Assembly (NCBI GenBank): GCA_012026655.1
Contig: JAAILG010001591.1
Span: forward strand, 1-64,000
Origin: Hydrolagus affinis
Lineage: Eukaryota
Direction of reading: 5' to 3'
Length of the DNA stretch: 64,000 nt
Shown: piece after piece, positions 28,982-64,000 of the stretch
How the letters are laid out: every line of letters begins with the position of its first letter
How positions within the stretch are numbered: position 1 is the first letter of the stretch
Notes under the pieces: model-generated
What the model saw: only the letters and a program-made list of their open reading frames with translations
Databases searched by the model: none
What the model was told of the DNA's origin: nothing
Translations under genes and position numbers: made by a program

Positions 28982-29304
28982 TAAGAGTTAATATAGATCT
29001 ATAAGAGTTAATATAGATCTATAAGAGTTAATATAGATCTATAAGAGTTAATATAGATCTATGAGTTAATATAGATCTATAAGAGTTAATACAGATCTAT
29101 GAGTTAATACAGATCTATAAGAGTTAATATAGATCTATAAGAGTTAATATAGATCTATAAGAGTTAATATAGATCTATAAGAGTTAATATAGATCTATAA
29201 GTTAATATAGATCTATAAGAGTTAATATAGATCTATAAGAGTTAATATAGATCTATAAGAGTTAATATAGATCTATAAGAGTTAATATAGGTCTAATATA
29301 GATC
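28982..29304. repeat. Minisatellite, 20-bp unit TAAGAGTTAATATAGATCTA, about 16 copies
   Basis: 15 AGATCT-containing units plus a degenerate end; a few 2-bp deletion variants. Confidence 0.97.
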
Positions 29305-30165: not shown

Positions 30166-30599
30166 TCATTGACCTCCTTCCTCTGGCCCTTCCTCCCCTG
30201 GTAGATCAAGGTTTCTGCTTTGTATATTTTGTGTCAATTCACTTCACAGTATAAAGCCCAACAAGCTCTTGCACCCCCCTTACCTCACCGACTTCCTAAC
30301 CCCATATCAGTCTATCCACTCCATCCGCTCGGCGGACACCAGTCTGCTTTAGGTCCCCTACACTTCCTATCCCACCATAGGAGATTGGGTGAGCATTGGG
30401 CGATTGAGATCCAGCATCACTGCCTCCACAATCTGAAACTCTTATCCCACCATCTCATTTCCCCTCTCTTGCCTCCTTCAAGTCCTGTCCAAAGAGCTTC
30501 CTCTTCGATCGCGCCTTCAGCCATCTTCCCACGCCTATCCCTCCTCCCCTTGACCCTAAATATGGGTCCAAATTCCCCTGACTGTCCAGTGCCGTTTTT

Positions 30600-30880
30600 T
30601 CCTGTAGCTCAGTAATTAGGGCACTCGCCTTATAAGCGAGAGACCTGGGTTCAATTCCAGGCAGGGTGAAACCTTGGGCAAGTTTCCTTACTCCATATGC
30701 CTGCCTAATAAATTGGTCATTTCAATCCACGATTGTTTGTGGGACATTGCTGTGCGCAATTGGCTGCTGAGTTTCGTCCACATATACAGTCACTTCACTT
30801 TACAGTATATTCTGTGAAGCACTTTGAGACATCAAGAAGACGTATAAAGCGCTGTATCAAATGCAAGGATTATTATTATT
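30600..30880 (+). mobile_element. Full-length tRNA-derived SINE with Deu-like domain and L2-type tail
   Basis: A box TAGCTCAGTAATTAGG; B box GGTTCAATTCC; central GCTGTGCGCAATTGGCTGCTG; tail GTGAAGCACTTTGAGAC..AAAGCGCTGTATCAAATGCAAGG(ATT)n. Confidence 0.85.
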
Positions 30881-48000: not shown

Positions 48001-51000
48001 GTCGACACAACTAATATTTCACAAGGTTTGAAAATCAAAGATAATATGATTACGTAAGAGTTGCAAGACTGCCAAGATCTAAATTTATGCTCACTTAAAG
48101 AGCAACATGCCTACATATGAGTTATGGATAATTATGGACACTGCTGTGCACAATTGGCTGCCGTGTTTTGGCCACACATATACAGTCAATTCACATTACA
48201 GTATCTTCTGAGAAGTGCTTTGAAACGTCTAGAAGACATGAAAAGCGATATATCAAATGCAAGGATTATTATTATTATTATTTGTATGCCAGCTTCACTG
48301 GTGAGGTCTTTTAGAAGTGAAACAGGGCGATTGAAAAAAAATGCTCCACTGAAAAGTTCTTCCTGTGCCAAATAGTTCCTGACCGATAAATCCTAATATA
48401 ATAGTGAACAAGAATAAAAACAAAATGACATTTGCAGGGTGTCTTTCATGTCGAGAGGACATCTTAAGGCGCTAGAAAGGCAGTATTTTAGATCCAAGCT
48501 GGGGGTCAGGATTGGGGAGGGGGGAGGGCAGGTGGGATGGTGTTCTGGAAGTGGGAGCAGAGTGGCTGAAAGCCTGCCTGTCAATGAGGTGGGGGACGCG
48601 AAGCAGGCCAGAGTCCGCTGAGTGAAGGGAGTGGACTGGTTGGTAGATGGTTAGGAGGTTGCAGGGGAGGGTGAGGTCATGGAGGGCTTTGAAGGTAAGA
48701 ACCAGGATCTTGAACTGTATCCTTTGTGAGATGGGAAGCCAGTGGAGTCAGGCAAGCATGGAGCCGAGTGCAGGAGAGGACACGGGCTGCAGAGTACTGG
48801 ATGATCTACCACCTCTGGAAGGAGGAGAGGGAGGCTGACAAGGAAGAAGTTTGCATAGGGACATGCAAACTCATGTAAACAATAATAAATTGGTCATTTC
48901 AATCCACAACTGCTTGCGGGACACTGCTGTGCGCAATTGACTGCTGCATCTTAATATAAGGCAGCATGTCAGTTTCCAGCATTAATTGTCAAAATTCGAT
49001 AGTTCTTTCCAATTCCCTCCAAATCAATGAAAATTAATTTTTCAACAGGCTGTTGAAGCATTGTTGATACAGAGAGATACAGAGACAGAGTATAAAAGTA
49101 AACAGATATTACAACTAACTTTATGCAAATCATTCATTATGCTGAAGCATTATGTCAGATTTTGAGCATCTCACTTCAGAAAAGATTTTAAGGCCTCAGA
49201 GAGGTCTCAGAGCAGGTTAACGAGAATGATGGGCTTACAGTTATTAGGAGATATTGGAGAAGCTGGTTGTGTTTTGAATCAGAGAAAGGGAGAAGGTCCA
49301 GGACACTACCTAGCATGAGGGGTGCTATAAATCTTAGTTATTTTTTTGTTGTTCAGGATGACCTGTTAGGACTAAAATGATGAGGTGTTTTGTTACGATA
49401 AGTAGGGATAACTTATTTCCATTGATAGAGAGGTTTATCACTCAGGGGCATTTTAAGATAGCTACAAGCACTGTAAAAGGAGAAACTCAGGAGTATTTTT
49501 TTCACCCAGAGATTTTTAGGGGTGAAACACTATCTCGGATGAGAGAGGTCGAGTCTATTGTGACTTTCATGAATGAAGTAAATAGGCCTGTGAAAGAGAA
49601 GAGCTTGAGAGGATCTAGGGATCAGGTGGGGTGGTAAGACTGAATTGATTTCCTTACTTTTTGAGCCAGTACAAACTCGATGGACCAAATAGCCTCCTTC
49701 TGCGCTGTAGATTTCTAGGTTTCAGGTTTAAAACTCGCAAAATATCTAATTTCTGGGTCACAGATCGCTATAAAGGTCACTTCCGGCAGGCCACACATGC
49801 ACATTACACACCGGCAGAATCGCTATCATCAGGAAGGGAAGAATATAATGTTTTAGGCTTTGCTGCCTGTTGAGCATGTGCACACAAGTGACATCTGTGG
49901 TGACCTTATGGCTCAGACGGTGGTTGTTTTGGAAGTCAAAAACCTCAATAAAAATCAGAAAAACATCCGGAAAAAAAATCAAGTTAAACAATAATTTTTT
50001 TTTAAAAAGTCAAAAATGAGTGAGCAAGTCTTCATAACACCTTCAACATTCTTGTTGAATGAACAAGAATATATTTTCCTTTTTGCGCAACTAAATTTCA
50101 ACCAAAATTTCAACTTCTACATTTATTTACTTACAGTAGTTATAGTTTCTGCAGCTGCTACCATATCTGCTAAACCAGCACTGATGATGTGCTCTTCCAA
50201 ATCTTTTAACATTGGTTCAATCCCATTAGGAACTTTATCCATCAGTGTAAACATTAAGTGTAATTCTGCACAAGTCAATAAAAAAAGTAAAGTTATTACA
50301 AAGTGACAGACAGCGTAAAAATTGCACAACAGGTAGGAAATCACAAGCACTTTATGATCAATATAATTTTTTGTCAACTCTTAAATTTGGATTAATAAGT
50401 AAGACTAAAGTATTCCAGCTCATATATAGTCCCAAAAGGTCAGCAAATCATACAATATCAATCAATTCAGCAATGCTTGAAAACTGAAAATCTAAGGACC
50501 AATGTTTTGTATTAAATCAATAAATATGAACTCATATTCTAAACCATTTATAAAAACACAAAATACTGCAAATGCTGGAAATCTGAAACAAAAACAGAAA
50601 TCACTGGGAACACTCAGCAGGACAGGCAGCATCTATGAAGAAAGGTAAAGTGAGTCAACATTTCGGATCTACGACCCTTCATAAAAACTCATCAAACGTA
50701 ACAAATCTTAAATCGTGAATTAAAACAGCAATTAAAATCGTTTTACATTTGGCTTAATTTATTTTACATAAAAGCAATCATCTATTTTCGTTTCAAAAGT
50801 ATTTAGATTTTTAAAAATTTGACAAATTTCAAATTCCTAACAAATCAACCAACCAACCAACTACAGTACATAGTACAGTACATTGAAGTATTTATGAATT
50901 TATTCTTTAATTGTTTAGTTTACTTTACGGCTACAGACAATAGCCATGTGCTGATCTATCAGTTGACCTTCTTCAAAGATTCCTACTGGACTTGTATGTG

Positions 51001-54000: not shown

Positions 54001-57000
54001 GTTTGTAGTTTTGCTACGGTTCAAACACTTGGATTCCCCATCAACCTTATTGTGGTTCCATTCATGTTTTCTTACATTATACAGAACTTTACAAAGGTTA
54101 AGATAAAGACTACAGAAATTCTTGACTTTTAAGAAAATAATGAATCTTGCGCAAAGTTAAATTGTGCAGTTCAATCGTAATTATGTCAGCTGTTACAAAC
54201 AGCCTGCTGTAACTGAGTATAAAATATTTATTTCACATTATATACACACACACAAATGCGATAAACAAAGTGCTGCTCCGTGTGTTTTAATATCTACCTT
54301 ACAATAGACTGGATAACATGTAGAGAATACACCCATCTTTGGGTTTGTGAGCAATCTATTAATATTATTTAACTGCTGTTAAGCAGAACATAGTACTGCA
54401 TCTAGAAACCTGCATCATCAGTGAAAATACATTTGTTTTCAAAAAGATAAAATATTGCATTGTAATTTCTACTAAAACGCTTAAGTTGATTGCAGATTCC
54501 TAACGACTCCAGGATCCTGATTCAAATACCGATTCTACATATTATATAAACACATATACAATACATAGTTAATAGTTATAGTTCCAGTATAATTTGTGGG
54601 ATATTGTGTGTGTAAATTGGCTGTCGTGTTTGCCTGCAAAATCCAGTCACTTTGCAGTTAACCTGTGAAGCACTTTGAGACGATCGCCTAATTTGAATGG
54701 CTCTAGAAGAAATACAGTAAAAGCCCGTTTATCTGGGGGGTCGACTGATTGACTGTGCCGGATAATTGGACGGCAAGTTGCCGAAAACACAACACAAAAA
54801 AATTACTTATTTTAAAACATATTATATTAACAATACGTTAAATAGTAACAGAATATTGTATGGATACTTACCAATAAAGCATTCCAGCACACGGTAAAAT
54901 GATCGGTAAAACAGCATTTCTTAACTGATCGGTAAAAACTCAAGTTTGTAAGTTTAATAAGTGTGCATGCTTACGCATTGCACGCATGCGCAAAGTGAGC
55001 ATACTCGCGATTGCTGGAATGGGGAATTCCCCTGGGAAACGGTCGAGCAATCTGGTTGATTGGGTCACGGATAAACGAGCTTTTACTGTACAAAGATTAT
55101 TATTATAGTTTGAGGTGCCTGCAAATTGATCAGCAGCTGAAAGCCTTTCGGCCACTGACCTACCTTGTCTTCAAGTGCTGAGCAACTTGCTCTGAATGTC
55201 CAGTTTGTCTTACCTTGTCAGCGCCTTGGGAAGTCCTCCTGACGTGAAATGCTCGCTATAAATGTAATTTTGTTTGTTGTTGTTGTACCTTTACCGTTAT
55301 GTGATCCAAGTTTAAGAGGATTTTCTTCAAACAAGTTTTTGAACAGAAATAGTTCCATAATTTGTAAATGATCATAAAATATATTTATGTATAGCCTCAG
55401 GAAAAGCACATCTCATGACATTGCATGGTATGAAACCAAAGCCTATGTAATTATCACTTATCTCTCGATACCACATTAATGATTCTATATACAATAAGAA
55501 TTATTATGATGATGATTAAGATTTGTTCAATCAGGTCATAAGTAAGTTTTTTTCAGAATGCAAGCTTCAGCAAAGGTAGAGTACCTTATGTGCAACAATA
55601 ACCTTACCATACGATTCTCTAACTCCAATTACTAGCTGTGAGTCAAAGGCTTCTCCTAGTCTTTCGGCATGAACTAGCTTCATTGCACTATCTTGCAGAC
55701 GATTCTTAATATTTGAGAAGATGGACTCATTCCAGGTGTCTAGCATAAGCTGAAAAATTTAAAGAATAATATTATTCTAAACCTTCAGACAATATCATAG
55801 ACAACAGATTACAAACCAACTAAGAAACTCTATTTTCAGCTTTACAGACTGCACCTTTTATTCGGTCATGGGTGTCTGACACCAGCAGAAATCCATTGTT
55901 AAAGAGTATCCACACCAGACAGATTTCCACATATCAAACAAAAGTACATATAATTATCACTGTAGGCATTACAGGCATGGAGATTTCCATGCAGTTGGAA
56001 ATGCAAACTCTCCCAAAACAGATACACCCTAATTATCTCATTCTGCAAACTATTAGGTTCAGGTTGCAAGAGTCTAGGCTTAGGGATGCAAAAGTGTGGG
56101 TTAGGTATTGCTGGAATTTAATTAACTAAAACTGCATAATTTGCCATTGCGAGGATCGTTTGGCAAGCTTCACGTTGCTTGTCCAGCTAGGACCACCATG
56201 CCCATTAAGACTTGGGTTTGCAGAGTTAACAGGGTGGGAAGAATCCCTATCCCTGGTGCCCCTCTGAGTCCTACCAAGACTCACTGGCCCATCTGCCAAC
56301 GATGATGCCTTGTGGACCCACCTGGCATAAACCAGGCCATTGAGACTACTTTAGAATAAATGTTAACATTCCTTTGTCAAGCACGTCGCCTTGGAGCCAG
56401 TTCAGGTACAAGAAATGCTAATCACCTCCCTCCTGCAGCATGTTCCCAGAACTGGACATCATTCTGTTTCATTCAAATTATATTATAGATTATTGCTAAT
56501 TTTTACTGAAGTAATCCATTCAGTGTTTTATATAGAATTAGCAGCTGTTAGTTGTTGATTTTATAAGATTCTAGTACCACTAGTTTTTTTTAAAAAAATA
56601 TACTTTTACTGTGAGTTTAGTTTTAGTTGTGTTTGGAAAATTCTTTTTACAAAAATGACAAGGCAAACAAATCTGGATTGATAATAGCTATTAAGCATTT
56701 TGTTTAAAACAAAACAATTCTTTGTTTTTGGTGAATTTAATCCATCAAAAACCTGGTCTCCATAAAGATAATTTAAATTCCATTAAATATTTTGCCACAC
56801 AAAAAGATAATAGATTAGAGTTAACTTTTCTAATGATCATTTGAAGAAACATAGAAAAAAAATTATTTCTCGTTTTGGAACAGTACAATTACTATACCTT
56901 TCTCACAATACTATCCTCTACATTGGATTTTTTATTGCTGCCCTGTTTGCCCATTAATGTAATCTCTAGCTGGCAGAAGGGTTTGGGCAAGATATCACAC

Positions 57001-60000: not shown

Positions 60001-61642
60001 CCCCTTGCTAAGGCTCTTAAATTCACCAATAACTTTCAGTTTCATACTTTATGGTACATCATGAAAAGCTTTTTGGGACAGATGTGCATCAATTATTAGG
60101 ATTATTTTGAATTGACAATCTCGAATCATAGACTCAATGCCCAGCGGAAATAATTAGTCCTCATCTACTCTAGGAAAATCCCTTCTGCCTTTAAAGACCT
60201 TTATCAGGTCCCTCCTCAACCTTTTTGTTCCACTGAAAAAAAGAACAAGTTCCTCTCATCTCTGCTCATAGGACAAACCATTTATCCCGGTATTATCCTA
60301 TTAAATCTCTTCTCCACTTTCTATGGCTCTTTCCAGAAGTAGGTTTCCTGACTGAGCCTGGACCCAATACTGTACCTGCAGTTTATTTAATGATTTACAC
60401 AGGTTAAGCATCACCTCTTTGGTTTTATTTAGCACTAGGCATACAAACCGGAAGCTCGCATGTTGAACAAACTGTATTTGCTGAGTTATTGGGGAACTCA
60501 AGTGGCCTCAGAGGCGCGGGGCAAAGGAGAAGAGGAATAAAGGAGAAAAAGCAAGGCTGGGTTGTAAGGTGTAGCTGCAAAGTGCACAGATGTGAATGTC
60601 AGCTAAGCACAGGATGGATTTAAAATACGATGTCCCCTTCTACTGATGGGACTCCAATGAAATTTGGCCACTTGAGCCAATTAGCGAAGGACTAATGTCT
60701 GTGTAACATCTGTGGAACCATATACTGTACCAACAAATACCAATAAATAAAGATAAACACCATCAGGTTCTGGGTTCCAATGATGTTTAAGTCGGATATG
60801 GGACCTATCTGAGCTTGGAAATTTGTTTATGCATACTTAGGACTACAGTATTATGTAAAATACAACTCACTAAAACTTCATATACACTACACTCCACCCA
60901 TTACAGCCAATGTTAAGAGAATCAGCCTTGGAGCTGACACTTTATTATACAGTACTTTAAATTCACAGATGGCGAGAAAATAGCCCAATTTCTCTGCAAC
61001 ACTATAAAGAGATGCCTTGCAATGCTGAGGGAGCTCAGAAAACATCAAACCATCAATAAAATCTGCATCAATCAACACCGACGATCATTTATACAGCACC
61101 CTTTACGTAGAATAACCTCCAGGAGCACTTTCGAGTAGTGGGGATGGAGCTAAGGGGGGAAAGTGACCATAGGTGTGATCAAAGAGGTTTTACAGGGGAC
61201 CTTGACATCCAATAGAAAGGTGCCAAGACAGAGAGATAGAGGGAAGGATCTCTAGAGGGTAAGGCCATAGAATCGAAAGCTCAGCCACTTATACTGACAT
61301 AGGTAGGGCAGAGAGTGGGAATAAAGAATAAGGGTTGTGGGAAGTAAAAAGATCAATTAAAGTCAACATATGAATCCAAATGGTTTCAAAACGCAGCACA
61401 CCCAGATATTTGATTGCACAAGAGATTGGCATTGTAATATACGATGCAAGTTTTTTTTAATGGTTTATGCAAAATAGATTTACAGCATCATGTTTTTCAC
61501 TCAATTAAATACAATATAAATAATTTACTTACGAAAATAAATCAAACCACTGCTGCTTTGTTACAGATTCCTGTCGTAACAGCTTTAGAACAATAGGGCG
61601 CATCAAATCCCATTTGTCTTCAAATTGGAGGGAACCTTTATT
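35868..61642 (-). CDS. CUL5: Cullin-5, exons 2-19 (exon 1 is outside the window)
   Basis: Spliced translation is nearly identical to vertebrate CUL5 from NKGSLQFEDKWD to DINTFIYMA*, including the neddylation-site region IMKMRKK; all introns GT-AG. Confidence 0.98.
37541..37664 (-). CDS. CUL5: CUL5 exon 18 (124 bp)
   Basis: KNSKVQKRGKINLIGRLQLTTERMREEENEGIVQLRILRTQ. Confidence 0.96.
37735..38302 (+). mobile_element. CR1 LINE 3' fragment
   Basis: LGLYSFEFRRLRVNLVEVFKMIKGFGRV; tail GGCTCGAAGGGCCGAATAGCCTACTCCTGTTCCTATGTT. Confidence 0.85.
38610..38790. repeat. AT-rich low-complexity tract
   Basis: Almost entirely A/T, with repeated TATTAATA/AATTAAT words. Confidence 0.7.
39442..39560 (-). CDS. 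CUL5: CUL5 exon 17 (119 bp)
   Basis: SLVAFPKLKRQVLLYEPQVNSPKDFTEGTLFSVNQDFSL. Confidence 0.96.
39962..41150 (-). mobile_element. L2 LINE remnant, apparently internally deleted
   Basis: IINHSLSIGTVPTSLKT..ITP..PISNLPF (pre-RT region) joined to SLASFKCRLKTLLF and the (GTT)n tail. Confidence 0.75.
41189..41350 (-). CDS. CUL5: CUL5 exon 16 (162 bp)
   Basis: ITFKNEVGQYDLEVTTFQLAVLFAWNQRPREKISFENLKLATELPDAELRRTLW. Confidence 0.96.
42824..42999 (-). CDS. CUL5: CUL5 exon 15 (176 bp)
   Basis: ADSVNIKILNAGAWSRSSEKVFVSLPTELEDLIPEVEEFYKKNHSGRKLHWHHLMSNGI. Confidence 0.96.
43762..43990. repeat. G-rich imperfect tandem repeat (GTGACTGGTGGGGG / GGTGTTGGGAGGTGGCT units)
   Basis: Direct reading; many G-runs of 3 or more on the + strand. 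Confidence 0.85.
44398..44521 (-). CDS. CUL5: CUL5 exon 14 (124 bp)
   Basis: EVGMPADYVNKLARMFQDIKVSEDLNQAFKEMHKNNKLALP. Confidence 0.96.
45002..45133 (-). CDS. CUL5: CUL5 exon 13 (132 bp)
   Basis: LLVLKYVQNKDVFMRYHKAHLTRRLILDISADSEIEENMVEWLR. Confidence 0.96.
46195..46327 (-). CDS. CUL5: CUL5 exon 12 (133 bp)
   Basis: VGLKTQPESKCPELLANYCDMLLRKTPLSKKLASEEIEAKLKEV. Confidence 0.96.
47061..47125 (-). CDS. CUL5: CUL5 exon 11 (65 bp)
   Basis: AYKAVVNDATIFKLELPLKQKG. Confidence 0.96.
47548..47655 (-). CDS. CUL5: CUL5 exon 10 (108 bp)
   Basis: DSEKYVEQLLTLFNRFSKLVKEAFQDDPRFLTARDK. Confidence 0.96.
48135..48283 (+). mobile_element. tRNA/Deu SINE, 3' half (further fragments near 34250-34405, 36330-36430, 38785-38920, 43220-43325, 47220-47330, 52040-52180)
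   Basis: Core and (ATT)n tail. Confidence 0.75.
48415..48850 (-). mobile_element. L2 LINE 3' fragment
   Basis: Aligns with the 58320-58860 and 21400-21850 copies. Confidence 0.78.
49130..49716 (+). mobile_element. Degenerate CR1 3' fragment
   Basis: Diverged similarity to the 9699 and 37735 copies; tail GATGGACCAAATAGCCTCCTTCTGCGCTGTAGATTTCTA. Confidence 0.6.
50135..50265 (-). CDS. CUL5: CUL5 exon 9 (131 bp)
   Basis: KLHLMFTLMDKVPNGIEPMLKDLEEHIISAGLADMVAAAETITT. Confidence 0.96.
50552..50691 (-). mobile_element. Second, older copy of the same PLE terminal repeat with a degenerate hammerhead
   Basis: Reverse complement aligns to 62040-62177; core reads TTTATGA..GAAATGTT instead of CTGACGA..GAAACGTT. 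Confidence 0.75.
51502..51595 (-). CDS. CUL5: CUL5 exon 8 (94 bp)
   Basis: LMECCVNALVTSFKETILAECPGMIKRNETD. Confidence 0.96.
52964..53044 (-). CDS. CUL5: CUL5 exon 7 (81 bp)
   Basis: ADAKLKEEEKRALRYLETRRECNSVQA. Confidence 0.96.
53649..53794 (-). CDS. CUL5: CUL5 exon 6 (146 bp)
   Basis: VNLCSNPEDKLQIYRDNFEKAYLDSTERFYRTQAPSYLQQNGVQNYMKY. Confidence 0.96.
54715..55088. mobile_element. MITE family A, copy 2 (opposite orientation to copy 1)
   Basis: Same TIRs and TA flanks; interior is the reverse complement of 1655-2014. Confidence 0.85.
55608..55749 (-). CDS. CUL5: CUL5 exon 5 (142 bp)
   Basis: LMLDTWNESIFSNIKNRLQDSAMKLVHAERLGEAFDSQLVIGVRESY. Confidence 0.96.
56898..57074 (-). CDS. CUL5: CUL5 exon 4 (177 bp)
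   Basis: RVLSHQDDTALLKAYIAEWRKFFTQCDILPKPF...EDSIVRK. Confidence 0.96.
57717..57949. mobile_element. Tigger/pogo-like MITE (family B)
   Basis: ta|CAGGTATCCCCAGATTTACGAC...GTCATTAATCCGGGGATTCCTG|ta; 22-bp imperfect TIR with TA flanks. Confidence 0.72.
58320..59025 (-). mobile_element. L2 LINE 3' portion
   Basis: LGVLFDRELSFLPHI..AFHHLRNIA, FVTSRLEYGYSLLVGLP..LQIIQNSAA, RIEFKILVLTFKALHGL, with frameshifts. Confidence 0.88.
59463..59562 (-). CDS. CUL5: CUL5 exon 3 (100 bp)
   Basis: DVHAVCLWDDKGPAKIHQALKEDILDFIKQAQA. Confidence 0.96.
59825..60430 (-). mobile_element. Degenerate CR1 3' fragment
   Basis: Reverse tail TTTACAGCACAGAAAGCCATTCAGCCCAT; ORF2-like KTKEVMLNLCKSL..QYWVQ. Confidence 0.6.
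61533..61642 (-). CDS. CUL5: CUL5 exon 2 (110 bp)
   Basis: NKGSLQFEDKWDLMRPIVLKLLRQESVTKQQWFDLFS. Confidence 0.96.
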
Positions 61643-61982
61643 CTGAAAGAAATTGATACAAAATAGTGATATAGTTGACAACAAAAGGATTCCAAAAGAT
61701 GTACTTTTCATTAATTGAAAATGTCTCGCATCGAGTCACCTTTTCATCCACAATGCCAATTTCCCTAAATTTCTGCTCCCCCTCAGGAGTTAACACTTCC
61801 TCACACCCACGTTACTGAAATAATCTGTTAACCCCTCTTCAGATCAATTGTTTAGTGGTTTATTCTGCACATGTAGAAACATGAATATTCAGAAGAAATA
61901 AGAAAAGCATTGGAGACCATGGGATATCTTGTGAATTACCAATGAGTGAATACACTCATTCAGGCACAACCTTCAAACAAGT

Positions 61983-62177
61983 ACAAGAAGTTGCTGGGAA
62001 AACTCAGCAGGTCAGGCAGCATCCATGGAGAAAGGAAAGTGAGTTCTGACGAAGGGTCGTGGACCCGAAACGTTGACTCACTTTCCTTTCTCCATGGATG
62101 TTGCCTGACCTGCTGAGTTTTCCCAGCAACTTCTGTTTTTGTTTCAGATTTCCAGCATTTGTAGTATTTTGTGTTTT
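61983..62177 (+). mobile_element. Penelope-like element (PLE) terminal-repeat insertion with inverted 5' end and 12-bp target-site duplication
   Basis: Direct repeat CTTCAAACAAGT at 61971-61982 and 62178-62189; 59-bp inverted repeat 61986-62044 / 62076-62134; sequence resembles the chondrichthyan PLE terminal repeat (recognised by eye, not by database search). Confidence 0.8.
62040..62080 (+). ncRNA. Minimal type I hammerhead ribozyme motif
   Basis: Stem I TGAGTT/GACTCA; core CTGACGA 62046-62052 plus an extra A; stem II GGGTC-gtg-GACCC; GAAA 62067-62070; palindromic stem III AACGTT; GUU cleavage triplet 62072-62074. Confidence 0.72.
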
Positions 62178-64000
62178 CTTCAAACAAGTGTTTGTTTCAA
62201 GATCTGAAGGCAAATGAAAACACCAAAGTATCTCAAACATTCGTTTGACAATAAAACATGCAACAACATATAAACGCAATTGTTGTATAATCCGAATCAA
62301 GTCACATACTAGCTTTAAAAAAAGATGAGGCATACCTCCTATTGAGAAGTAAGAAAAAGGAGACCATTTAAAATTAGTTCATACTTTAATAAGGAATCCT
62401 GGGTTCTGGGGTTATGACAAAATACAGTCATTCCACTTTACAATGTGTCCTGTAAAACACTTTGACAGCTTGTTTAACGGACATTAACCGCTGGATCAGT
62501 GCAAATTTCCTGCAGCTGAATTTTGGCAAGATGGAAGCCATATTTTTTGGCTCCCATCAACGCCTTCTCTCCACAGAGAGAGAAGCTCTCCACCTGGCGT
62601 GAAGTGCACTATATAAATGCAAGTTGACCCTGCTGGTCAAGGCCAACATTTGTTTTTAAGCGCTCTGACACTACCCTGCATGAGGGCGCAATATAAATGC
62701 AAGTTGTTATTGTTGTATAACCTTGTAAACTAATGAATTGCTACTGTGAACCTAAGCCATACAGATCTGAAAGGTTGTAAGTTAGATCTCCCAATCTGTA
62801 AATTAGATCTCCCAATCAACTCAGAAAAAGGAATTTCAGCCAGGACGGCAGATAAAGGTGTGACATAGCTTAATCAGGGGAACCAACCATAGAAATTCAC
62901 CTTTACAATCTCATAGCAGTTTCCAAAGTTATTTCAAGCTACACATCTCTCTAATTTTGTGAAGTTATAAACAAAAGCACGGAAATTTAGAATGAACAGT
63001 TCATCAGCCATTTGAGAACACATGTCTGAGCTGGCCACAATGATCCCCTGCCAAACAGTTACAATTGTCTGACCTTGAACAATGTAGATGAGGTGTTTCC
63101 ATTTTGAACAAAAATCAATTTACAGTACAGTACCATGTTATTTAACCATAAAGTATTATAAGTTTTAACAGTACACAATATAAAGAGGTTATAGAGCACT
63201 GACATGGACACAGAATATTTTATGAAACTGCAGAACTCTTGCCAACGCCTGCATCTTTCAGTTCCACCATATACTGTACGACCAGAGGAATTCTCACAGA
63301 CTGACTGACCTTCAGATTTTCACTTTGAGCATCAGACAGATATTCTGTTGTACTGCATTGTTCATGTGGAATTTAAGCAACAGGTGTGAGGAGCTTCCCA
63401 ATCAACTTTGCTCACAGCTGCTATCCTATTCATCACAGGCAGCTGCAGTAACAAGTGTGTTATAAACTGACTGGAGCTTTACAGACCACATGCAAACAAA
63501 CCCTGAATCTTTCTAATCGCTGTATGGAATTTGAGGAAGCTTTAGGAATAAATATCTTGAAAATCGTAAATTAAGCCTTATTATCTAACTTGGGTGACTC
63601 ATCAAATGGGTGGTAAAGGAGAGAATTACTAGGTTCTCTCCGAAGACAATTTGTATCTGTTCATTTTCTGTTGCTCAACCGGGTGACTGACACATCTAAA
63701 AACCCATCTCCATACTTAAGAATATCCAAATCAAGATGAGATTTCCATTCATCCCATCTACACATGGAAATACCGGAGACAGATTGTTGGAATGGCATAC
63801 ACACTCTCTCCCTGGATCACAGGAATGAGGATCACAGAAATGGAAACCAGTGCAGGAGGCTATTCGCCTTATCTATTCTAAACTTGTACTAACTCATCCA
63901 CGGCTGTTTACTGCTCTAATCTCAATTCCTTGTTCTTGCACTTTTCCCTTCTAACTCTATGGTGGTCTTGGTAGTCTAGACGGGTCAGCAGTATTCCATA

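Follow-up and report, generated by a model that had tools for sequence, protein, structure and literature searches.

The window analysed here is a 64,000-nucleotide stretch of the Hydrolagus affinis genome (contig JAAILG010001591.1, positions 1 to 64,000 of the forward strand). Near its right end, upstream of a coding exon of CUL5, lies a 195-bp insert that is abutted at both ends by exactly matching 12-bp direct repeats (Table 1). An exact 12-mer pair within 11 × 11 offsets has a computed chance of about 1e-5, which bears out the target-site duplication (TSD) and the coordinates proposed in a preliminary description of this DNA. The long hairpin reported there was also recovered on re-reading the sequence: the arms at 61986–62044 and 62076–62134 pair at 58 of 59 positions. 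The sole mismatch sets G at 62019 against T at 62101, giving a G–U pair in RNA of the + strand and an A–C mismatch on the − (CUL5) strand. Between the arms lies a 31-nt loop, which reads U, CUGACGA, A, GGGUC-GUG-GACCC, GAAA, CGUU, G. For all copies of the family to which the insert belongs, we use a coordinate q, the position along 62040–62177 of the window. The insert consists of two oppositely oriented halves of this family sequence. They join at the three letters AGT, which are also the complementarity of hammerhead stem I. The inverted half of the window copy likely carries a 5-nt deletion near its outer end.

Table 1. Features of the insert and its surroundings in the window.
Feature	Position	Strand	Description
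CUL5 coding exon	61532..61642	-	Cullin-5 residues 9-45; E ~4e-19 to 7e-19; 340 nt from the insert
Left target-site duplication	61971..61982	+	12 bp, CTTCAAACAAGT
Right target-site duplication	62178..62189	+	12 bp, exact repeat of CTTCAAACAAGT
Inverted half	61983..62044	-	q37-q103 in reverse; outer end is the family's short 3' site
Join microhomology AGT	62042..62044	.	Occurs both in the inverted half, as complement of q37-39, and at the sense half's usual 5' start
Sense half	62042..62177	+	3' pseudo-LTR end of a Neptune-like Penelope; usual 5' boundary to long 3' site
Minimal type I hammerhead core	62045..62075	+	CUGACGA, extra A, 5-bp stem II, GAAA, palindromic AACGUU, no loop III
One-sided tail	62143..62177	+	35 nt between the family's two 3' end sites
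Older solo family copy	50553..50691	-	88% identical, core mutated

The ribozyme strand is antisense to CUL5. The preliminary description placed the insert in CUL5 intron 1, and the matched exon upholds the gene. CUL5 exon 1 was found neither in the window nor in the contig's remaining 798 bases, so the number of the intron is presumptive.

The insert belongs to a high-copy family. A similarity search of the genome gave 1902 candidates, with the best matches 94–99% identical. The 18-mer at q36–53 has at least 3378 exact genome matches (control, 0), and the 15-mer at q3–17 has 3692. Copies that extend further upstream have up to 1.2 kb in common, and the 3' parts of the long copies align at 92% mean column identity. 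Raw translation of four long copies yields reverse transcriptase (RT) motifs, a C-x4-C-x2-C linker (seen in L164, L172, and L177) and a GIY-YIG region, all in broken frames. Pfam matches to RVT_1 (E 0.018, 15.2 bits against a curated cut-off of 29.6) and GIY-YIG (E 0.0015, 19.2 bits against 22.6) both come from the broken frames of a single copy, L177. With these remnants upstream of the shared 3' end, the Penelope-like origin suggested earlier holds, and the insert corresponds to the 3' terminus of an element that encodes RT followed by GIY-YIG endonuclease, as expected of an EN+ Penelope-like element (PLE). The parent looks Neptune-like by its C-x4-C-x2-C linker, a feature that Nematis has too; a Cys-rich linker is described for both (PMC8557442). 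A literature search for shark Neptune elements found nothing relevant. At five loci (L002, L008, L012, L013, and L021) a second family insertion lies within 0.4–1.6 kb, in agreement with high density or local clustering.

To describe the family without regard to the 5' end, 89 distinct loci were drawn from 93 of the first 100 listed matches of the 18-mer, blind to that end. An inverted half lies directly upstream in 44 of the 89, so the inverted 5' part noted at the window copy recurs head to head across the family. The 3' ends fall at q98–113 in 38 loci, at q123 or more in 37, and elsewhere in 14. The family has two 3' end sites about 34 nt apart, with each half using one: a short end is paired with a long end in 30 of the 31 inverted copies that could be classified (p 1.5e-8), while 13 of the 44 have one end outside both classes. 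The window copy has its long end on the sense half and its short end (q103) on the inverted half, and contig loose ends fall behind 62143 and 62177, the two sites. Its 35-nt tail lies within the 30–40 bp of known one-sided tails (PMC2377424). An inverted 5'-truncated copy with a 30–40-bp tail on one side is likewise what two further sources describe, the first for EN+ PLE insertions (PMC8557442, PMC3846280). For Poseidon of Anolis, the published report explains the tail as the gap between two internal RT starts, names uncleaved RNA as the main template, and has both target strands cut and extended (PMC11167929). The inverted halves of several copies, including L109 and L126, omit part of the hammerhead, passing from stem II or from the cut region to the 5' end as though the polymerase hops across the hairpin.

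At the other end, the sense halves of the 89 loci start at q0–9 in 42, further upstream in 16 (some by a few bases only), at q10–33 in 26, and at q34–38 in 5. Contig loose ends pile up at 62042–62044 in four contig sets. In long copies (L161–L190) a TTAAAAA stands 29 nt upstream of the boundary sequence CCAGTTC, which we take to be initiator-like from its consensus. Among 100 listed rows in each case, G precedes AGTT in 55 (24 expected) and GTT in 47 (28 expected), counts that include inverted joins and make the excess suggestive only. The TTAAAAA, the initiator-like CCAGTTC and the G excess fit a capped transcript start, and suggest that the family 5' boundary is where a capped transcript begins. 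An extra G at the start of nearly all copies had appeared in a query-biased set of 30 top matches; the pattern re-test leaves an excess only. The boundary bases may instead be a splice acceptor, with branch point, pyrimidine tract and CAG; in Drosophila virilis an intron ends at helix I (PMC4209133). Capture of a host exon through the acceptor-like CAG was considered and rejected. In single copies inspected by eye the left TSD lies about 0–8 nt from the core start, so no upstream exon is carried. TG before AGTT is over-represented (38 among 100 listed rows), often as AACT-G-AGTT, a tiny palindrome at the 5' end.

One question is whether the join on stem I is special. Joins in the 44 inverted copies range from q−1 to q118, about 120 nt. 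A gapped pattern found 140 joins between q38 and the core. Counted by eye among the 100 listed, the zero-gap join, on stem I, occurs 4 times, against about 3 expected from an even spread over 31 gap lengths (p 0.40). Gaps 1–4 hold 1, 1, 0, and 0 joins and gaps 5–7 hold 2, 3, and 5. Short sequence matches seem to make small join peaks, stem I among them. Because the zero-gap count exceeds those of gaps 1–4, joining may mildly favour stem I locally, as it does gaps 6–7. The junction 16-mer has 10 exact genome matches (control, 1): seven have the same join followed by the core, one has this join with an 11-nt duplication, one continues differently, and one is unrelated.

The seven same-join loci are not alike. 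Two carry the tail on the sense half and five on the inverted half. TSD candidates measure 12, 13, 10, and 9 bp, with none convincing in three; counted over the junction matches, the TSD is 12 bp at the window copy and 9–14 bp at four other loci. The sense halves differ at 2–16 positions over up to 68. Both halves of L034 carry private letters absent from the other same-join copies, and the same is true of L038. In five copies the inverted half has q108–138, which is missing from the hammerhead-bearing half. Differing TSDs, tail polarity and subfamily letters indicate that the seven arose independently. The inversion does land on stem I at the window copy, as first described, and the inverted architecture does recur genome-wide with different TSDs, but as independent events and not as a mobile unit. 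The preliminary description had itself named random inversion points in other copies as evidence against its compact hairpin-ribozyme unit; with joins spread over such a range, that unit is not supported. The join likely fell on the ribozyme's own stem by chance. No report of a stem I join or a 60-bp helix I was found in the main texts consulted, in searches of wider aim.

The core matches CUGANGA, GAAA and UH, with an unpaired base before stem II and a palindromic stem III without a loop. By hammerhead consensus numbering, the cut presumably falls after 62074. The native stem I, previously put at about 6 bp, is actually 4 bp (CCAGUU/GACU) in long copies, as the bases before the core (CCCCAGTT) show. 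The copy at 50552, used earlier as the stem I reference, has a mutated core (UUUAUGA). A monomer that lacks loop III is unable to make stem III, and the stem I of a dimer is intermolecular. By inspection against the published description, the minimal type I core is intact, in line with the preliminary reading: minimal hammerheads (min-HHRs) of metazoan PLEs have the extra base before stem II and a palindromic stem III without a loop (PMC4209133). Rfam hammerhead families gave no match at the gathering score or at E ≤ 10; only sub-threshold miRNA models, which fit any long hairpin, appeared.

Folding points to an inactive monomer. In ViennaRNA, the core GACG pairs with CGUU at P 0.99 and the open core has P 0.01, with no difference between 6- and 60-bp stems. 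Relative to two monomers, the active dimer is less stable by 7.1 kcal/mol at each modelled stem I length (4, 6, and 60 bp), so the 60-bp extension gives no thermodynamic gain, and an active dimer of 60-bp-stem copies would need 60 bp exchanged. These nearest-neighbour values leave out Mg2+, tertiary contacts, and the protein help on which the Anolis ribozyme depends (PMC11167929). A lone core is predicted to be inactive: it lacks the stem III loop and depends on a second molecule with the stem I strands exchanged; it also lies antisense to CUL5. The min-HHR work reports that a single motif does not cleave (PMC4209133), and a review is in line with the dimer topology of loopless hammerheads (PMC6765202). 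Folding predicts no help to cleavage from the long stem. Cleavage by the clamped core, should it occur, would offer a natural route from a dimer-only to a monomer- or trans-active ribozyme.

We are highly confident that the insert is a short stub left by an abundant Neptune-like Penelope; it was likely dead on arrival and probably arose from two cDNAs joined head to head. The capped transcript would start at the family 5' boundary, which lies a few bases ahead of the hammerhead core (step 1). The 5' end of the element's RNA would give two cDNAs, each primed from a different strand of the same cut target, and the family's two 3' sites would be two internal reverse-transcription starts, as in Anolis Poseidon (step 2). 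The shorter cDNA would have stopped near q37–40 (step 3) and paired with the full cDNA's 3' end through the 3-nt AGT/ACT, that is, stem I (step 4). The 60-bp stem I helix would then be a by-product of the AGT/ACT join.

An alternative route would use one cDNA. Terminating in the complement of the 5' stem I strand, it would fold back on the 3' stem I strand of the same molecule and use itself as template, so that this join would arise by design. The window copy and L038 have exactly the geometry that this requires, TG often stands ahead of AGTT (38 of the 100 rows), and a proposal for Adineta explains palindromic joins by self-priming (PMC3846280). This reading is nonetheless unlikely for the insert and was ruled out as a general route. 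Five of the seven stem-I-join copies have inverted-half sequence absent from the other half: q108–138 is present only in the inverted half, so a simple single-cDNA fold-back cannot explain them. The window's inverted half ends at the short 3' site, as in two-cDNA copies. G before TGAGTT occurs in 17 of 100 listed rows, against 28 expected by A, C, G composition, and without a G excess there the step-wise fold-back extension is not seen. We judge it very unlikely that ribozyme-cleaved RNA, with its 5' end at q36, served as template for the inverted half and that the join is thus a fossil of in vivo cleavage. In favour of this reading, q37 is the last position of the inverted half, a single base away from the predicted cut, and single joins among those listed end exactly at q37 or the cut position. 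Genomic 5' ends show no excess at q36 (15 of 27 distinct loci, from 28 matches) over the controls q38 (20 of 30 examined, 37 matches) and q40 (10 of 29 examined, 48 matches) in this three-position test. In Anolis, too, no reads at the cut site are recorded (PMC11167929).

That the 195-nt fold-back RNA was itself copied and spread, as a non-autonomous mobile hairpin-ribozyme unit, is extremely unlikely. The same join in seven of the ten exact junction matches, the intact core, and the intact TSD speak for it. Opposed tail polarity (2 against 5) and differing half lengths speak against it, as do the 2–16 sense-half differences over up to 68 positions, the letters private to L034 and L038, and a stem I join frequency at the flat expectation. 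A self-spreading MITE- or SINE-like unit would show numerous copies with common ends and a common join; the seven same-join loci differ in ends, polarity and subfamily.

Several known systems resemble the insert. EN+ PLE insertion units (PMC8557442; Pen2a_Av, PMC3846280) have an inverted half, a one-sided tail and a TSD, as well as a hammerhead in the pseudo-LTR (pLTR) and a short overlap at the join; the window insert differs from them in having no ORF, halves under 140 nt, and a join that coincides with stem I. The Anolis carolinensis Poseidon (PAc) has two 3' sites one tail apart and an uncut genomic hammerhead (PMC11167929). The parent of the window family differs from PAc in its C-x4-C-x2-C linker, as in Neptune and Nematis, and the stub has no open frame from stem II onward, with an in-frame stop within about 20 codons. 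With PLE min-HHRs, as PMC4209133 describes them, the insert shares the extra base between 9 and 10.1, G10.1–C11.1, the palindromic 15.2–16.2, the absence of loop III, and a 4-bp native helix I; lone motifs and pairs on opposite strands are already reported there, and the window copy is set apart by a helix I stretched to 60 bp. Animal non-LTR retrozymes are also non-coding and PLE-derived, with a type I hammerhead, but they are described as head-to-tail tandem arrays of at least two motifs, in contrast to the one motif and inverted layout found here (bioRxiv 10.64898/2026.07.22.740005). A retrozyme identity was rejected on that layout. The window insert is most likely an ordinary EN+ PLE inverted-pLTR insertion, with all the defining features that were tested present.

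As one outcome among many join positions, the single locus carries little weight. The family as a whole can serve as a fossil record of how Penelope elements integrate. Its signals are the use of a different 3' site by each half in 30 of 31 copies, the start of most short copies a few bases ahead of the hammerhead with an excess of G that would fit a capped RNA, and the absence of a mark at the cut site.

The preliminary description suggested a young insertion. The halves of the window copy differ at 1 of 59 positions (95% range 0.04–9%), and the nearest family copy is 98.5% identical to it. A contig of a second organism (B) runs from unique flank into 32 letters of the insert, with 14 flank differences over about 920 positions; a contig of organism A reaches 30 letters into the insert, 1 under the bridging threshold, with 7 over about 610. 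The insert is present across flanks about 1–1.5% diverged, so the insertion predates that split: it is fairly young for the family and older than the split marked by this intron divergence. No empty-site joint was seen among 15 listed of 166 joints in four contig sets, out of 23 listed sequencing runs. The window copy keeps an intact core and all CpGs at positions where 14–34% of 118 aligned copies differ. Youth would explain both; selection for retention is possible.

The long hairpin proposed as possible in CUL5 pre-mRNA is supported by the model, with predicted folding of the CUL5-strand RNA at −122.8 kcal/mol (z −18). An A–C mismatch in dsRNA is a plausible substrate for ADAR, given its preference, and the CUL5-strand hairpin, with such a mismatch, is a plausible editing substrate. 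It is highly improbable that the hairpin was retained for a role in CUL5 expression, whether as intronic dsRNA for editing or dicing or by cutting antisense RNA. The stable hairpin with its A–C mismatch and the presence of the insert in a second organism are what one would expect of such a role, but about half of the sampled family copies form comparable hairpins, the arm divergence of 1/59 (95% range 0.04–9%) agrees with the flank divergence of 1–1.5%, and the nearest exon is 340 nt away. A further reading, in which stem I is a DNA-level joining aid for the two cDNAs of one insertion and an intact core clamped by 60–100 bp cuts host antisense transcripts such as those of CUL5, with an element protein or a second molecule, is very improbable.

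Donor-like AAA/GTGAGT motifs lie antisense to the element at 62076–62084 (−) and 62036–62044 (+); the CUL5-strand motif is inside the hairpin, about 430 nt upstream of the exon acceptor. An acceptor-like TTCTGTTTTTGTTTCAG at 62130–62150 (+) overlaps the family's short 3' end site. The inverted half lacks it, which leaves CUL5 facing no acceptor of this kind. Elsewhere in the window, a tRNA-like match at 30598–30669 (+; Rfam, 43.9 bits) heads a repeat that recurs many times there and is likely a tRNA-derived SINE. A local tandem duplication lies at 28982–29295, with units 94–97% identical, and inverted copies of a repeat of about 380 bp, 81% identical, lie at 1653–2019 and 54710–55090.
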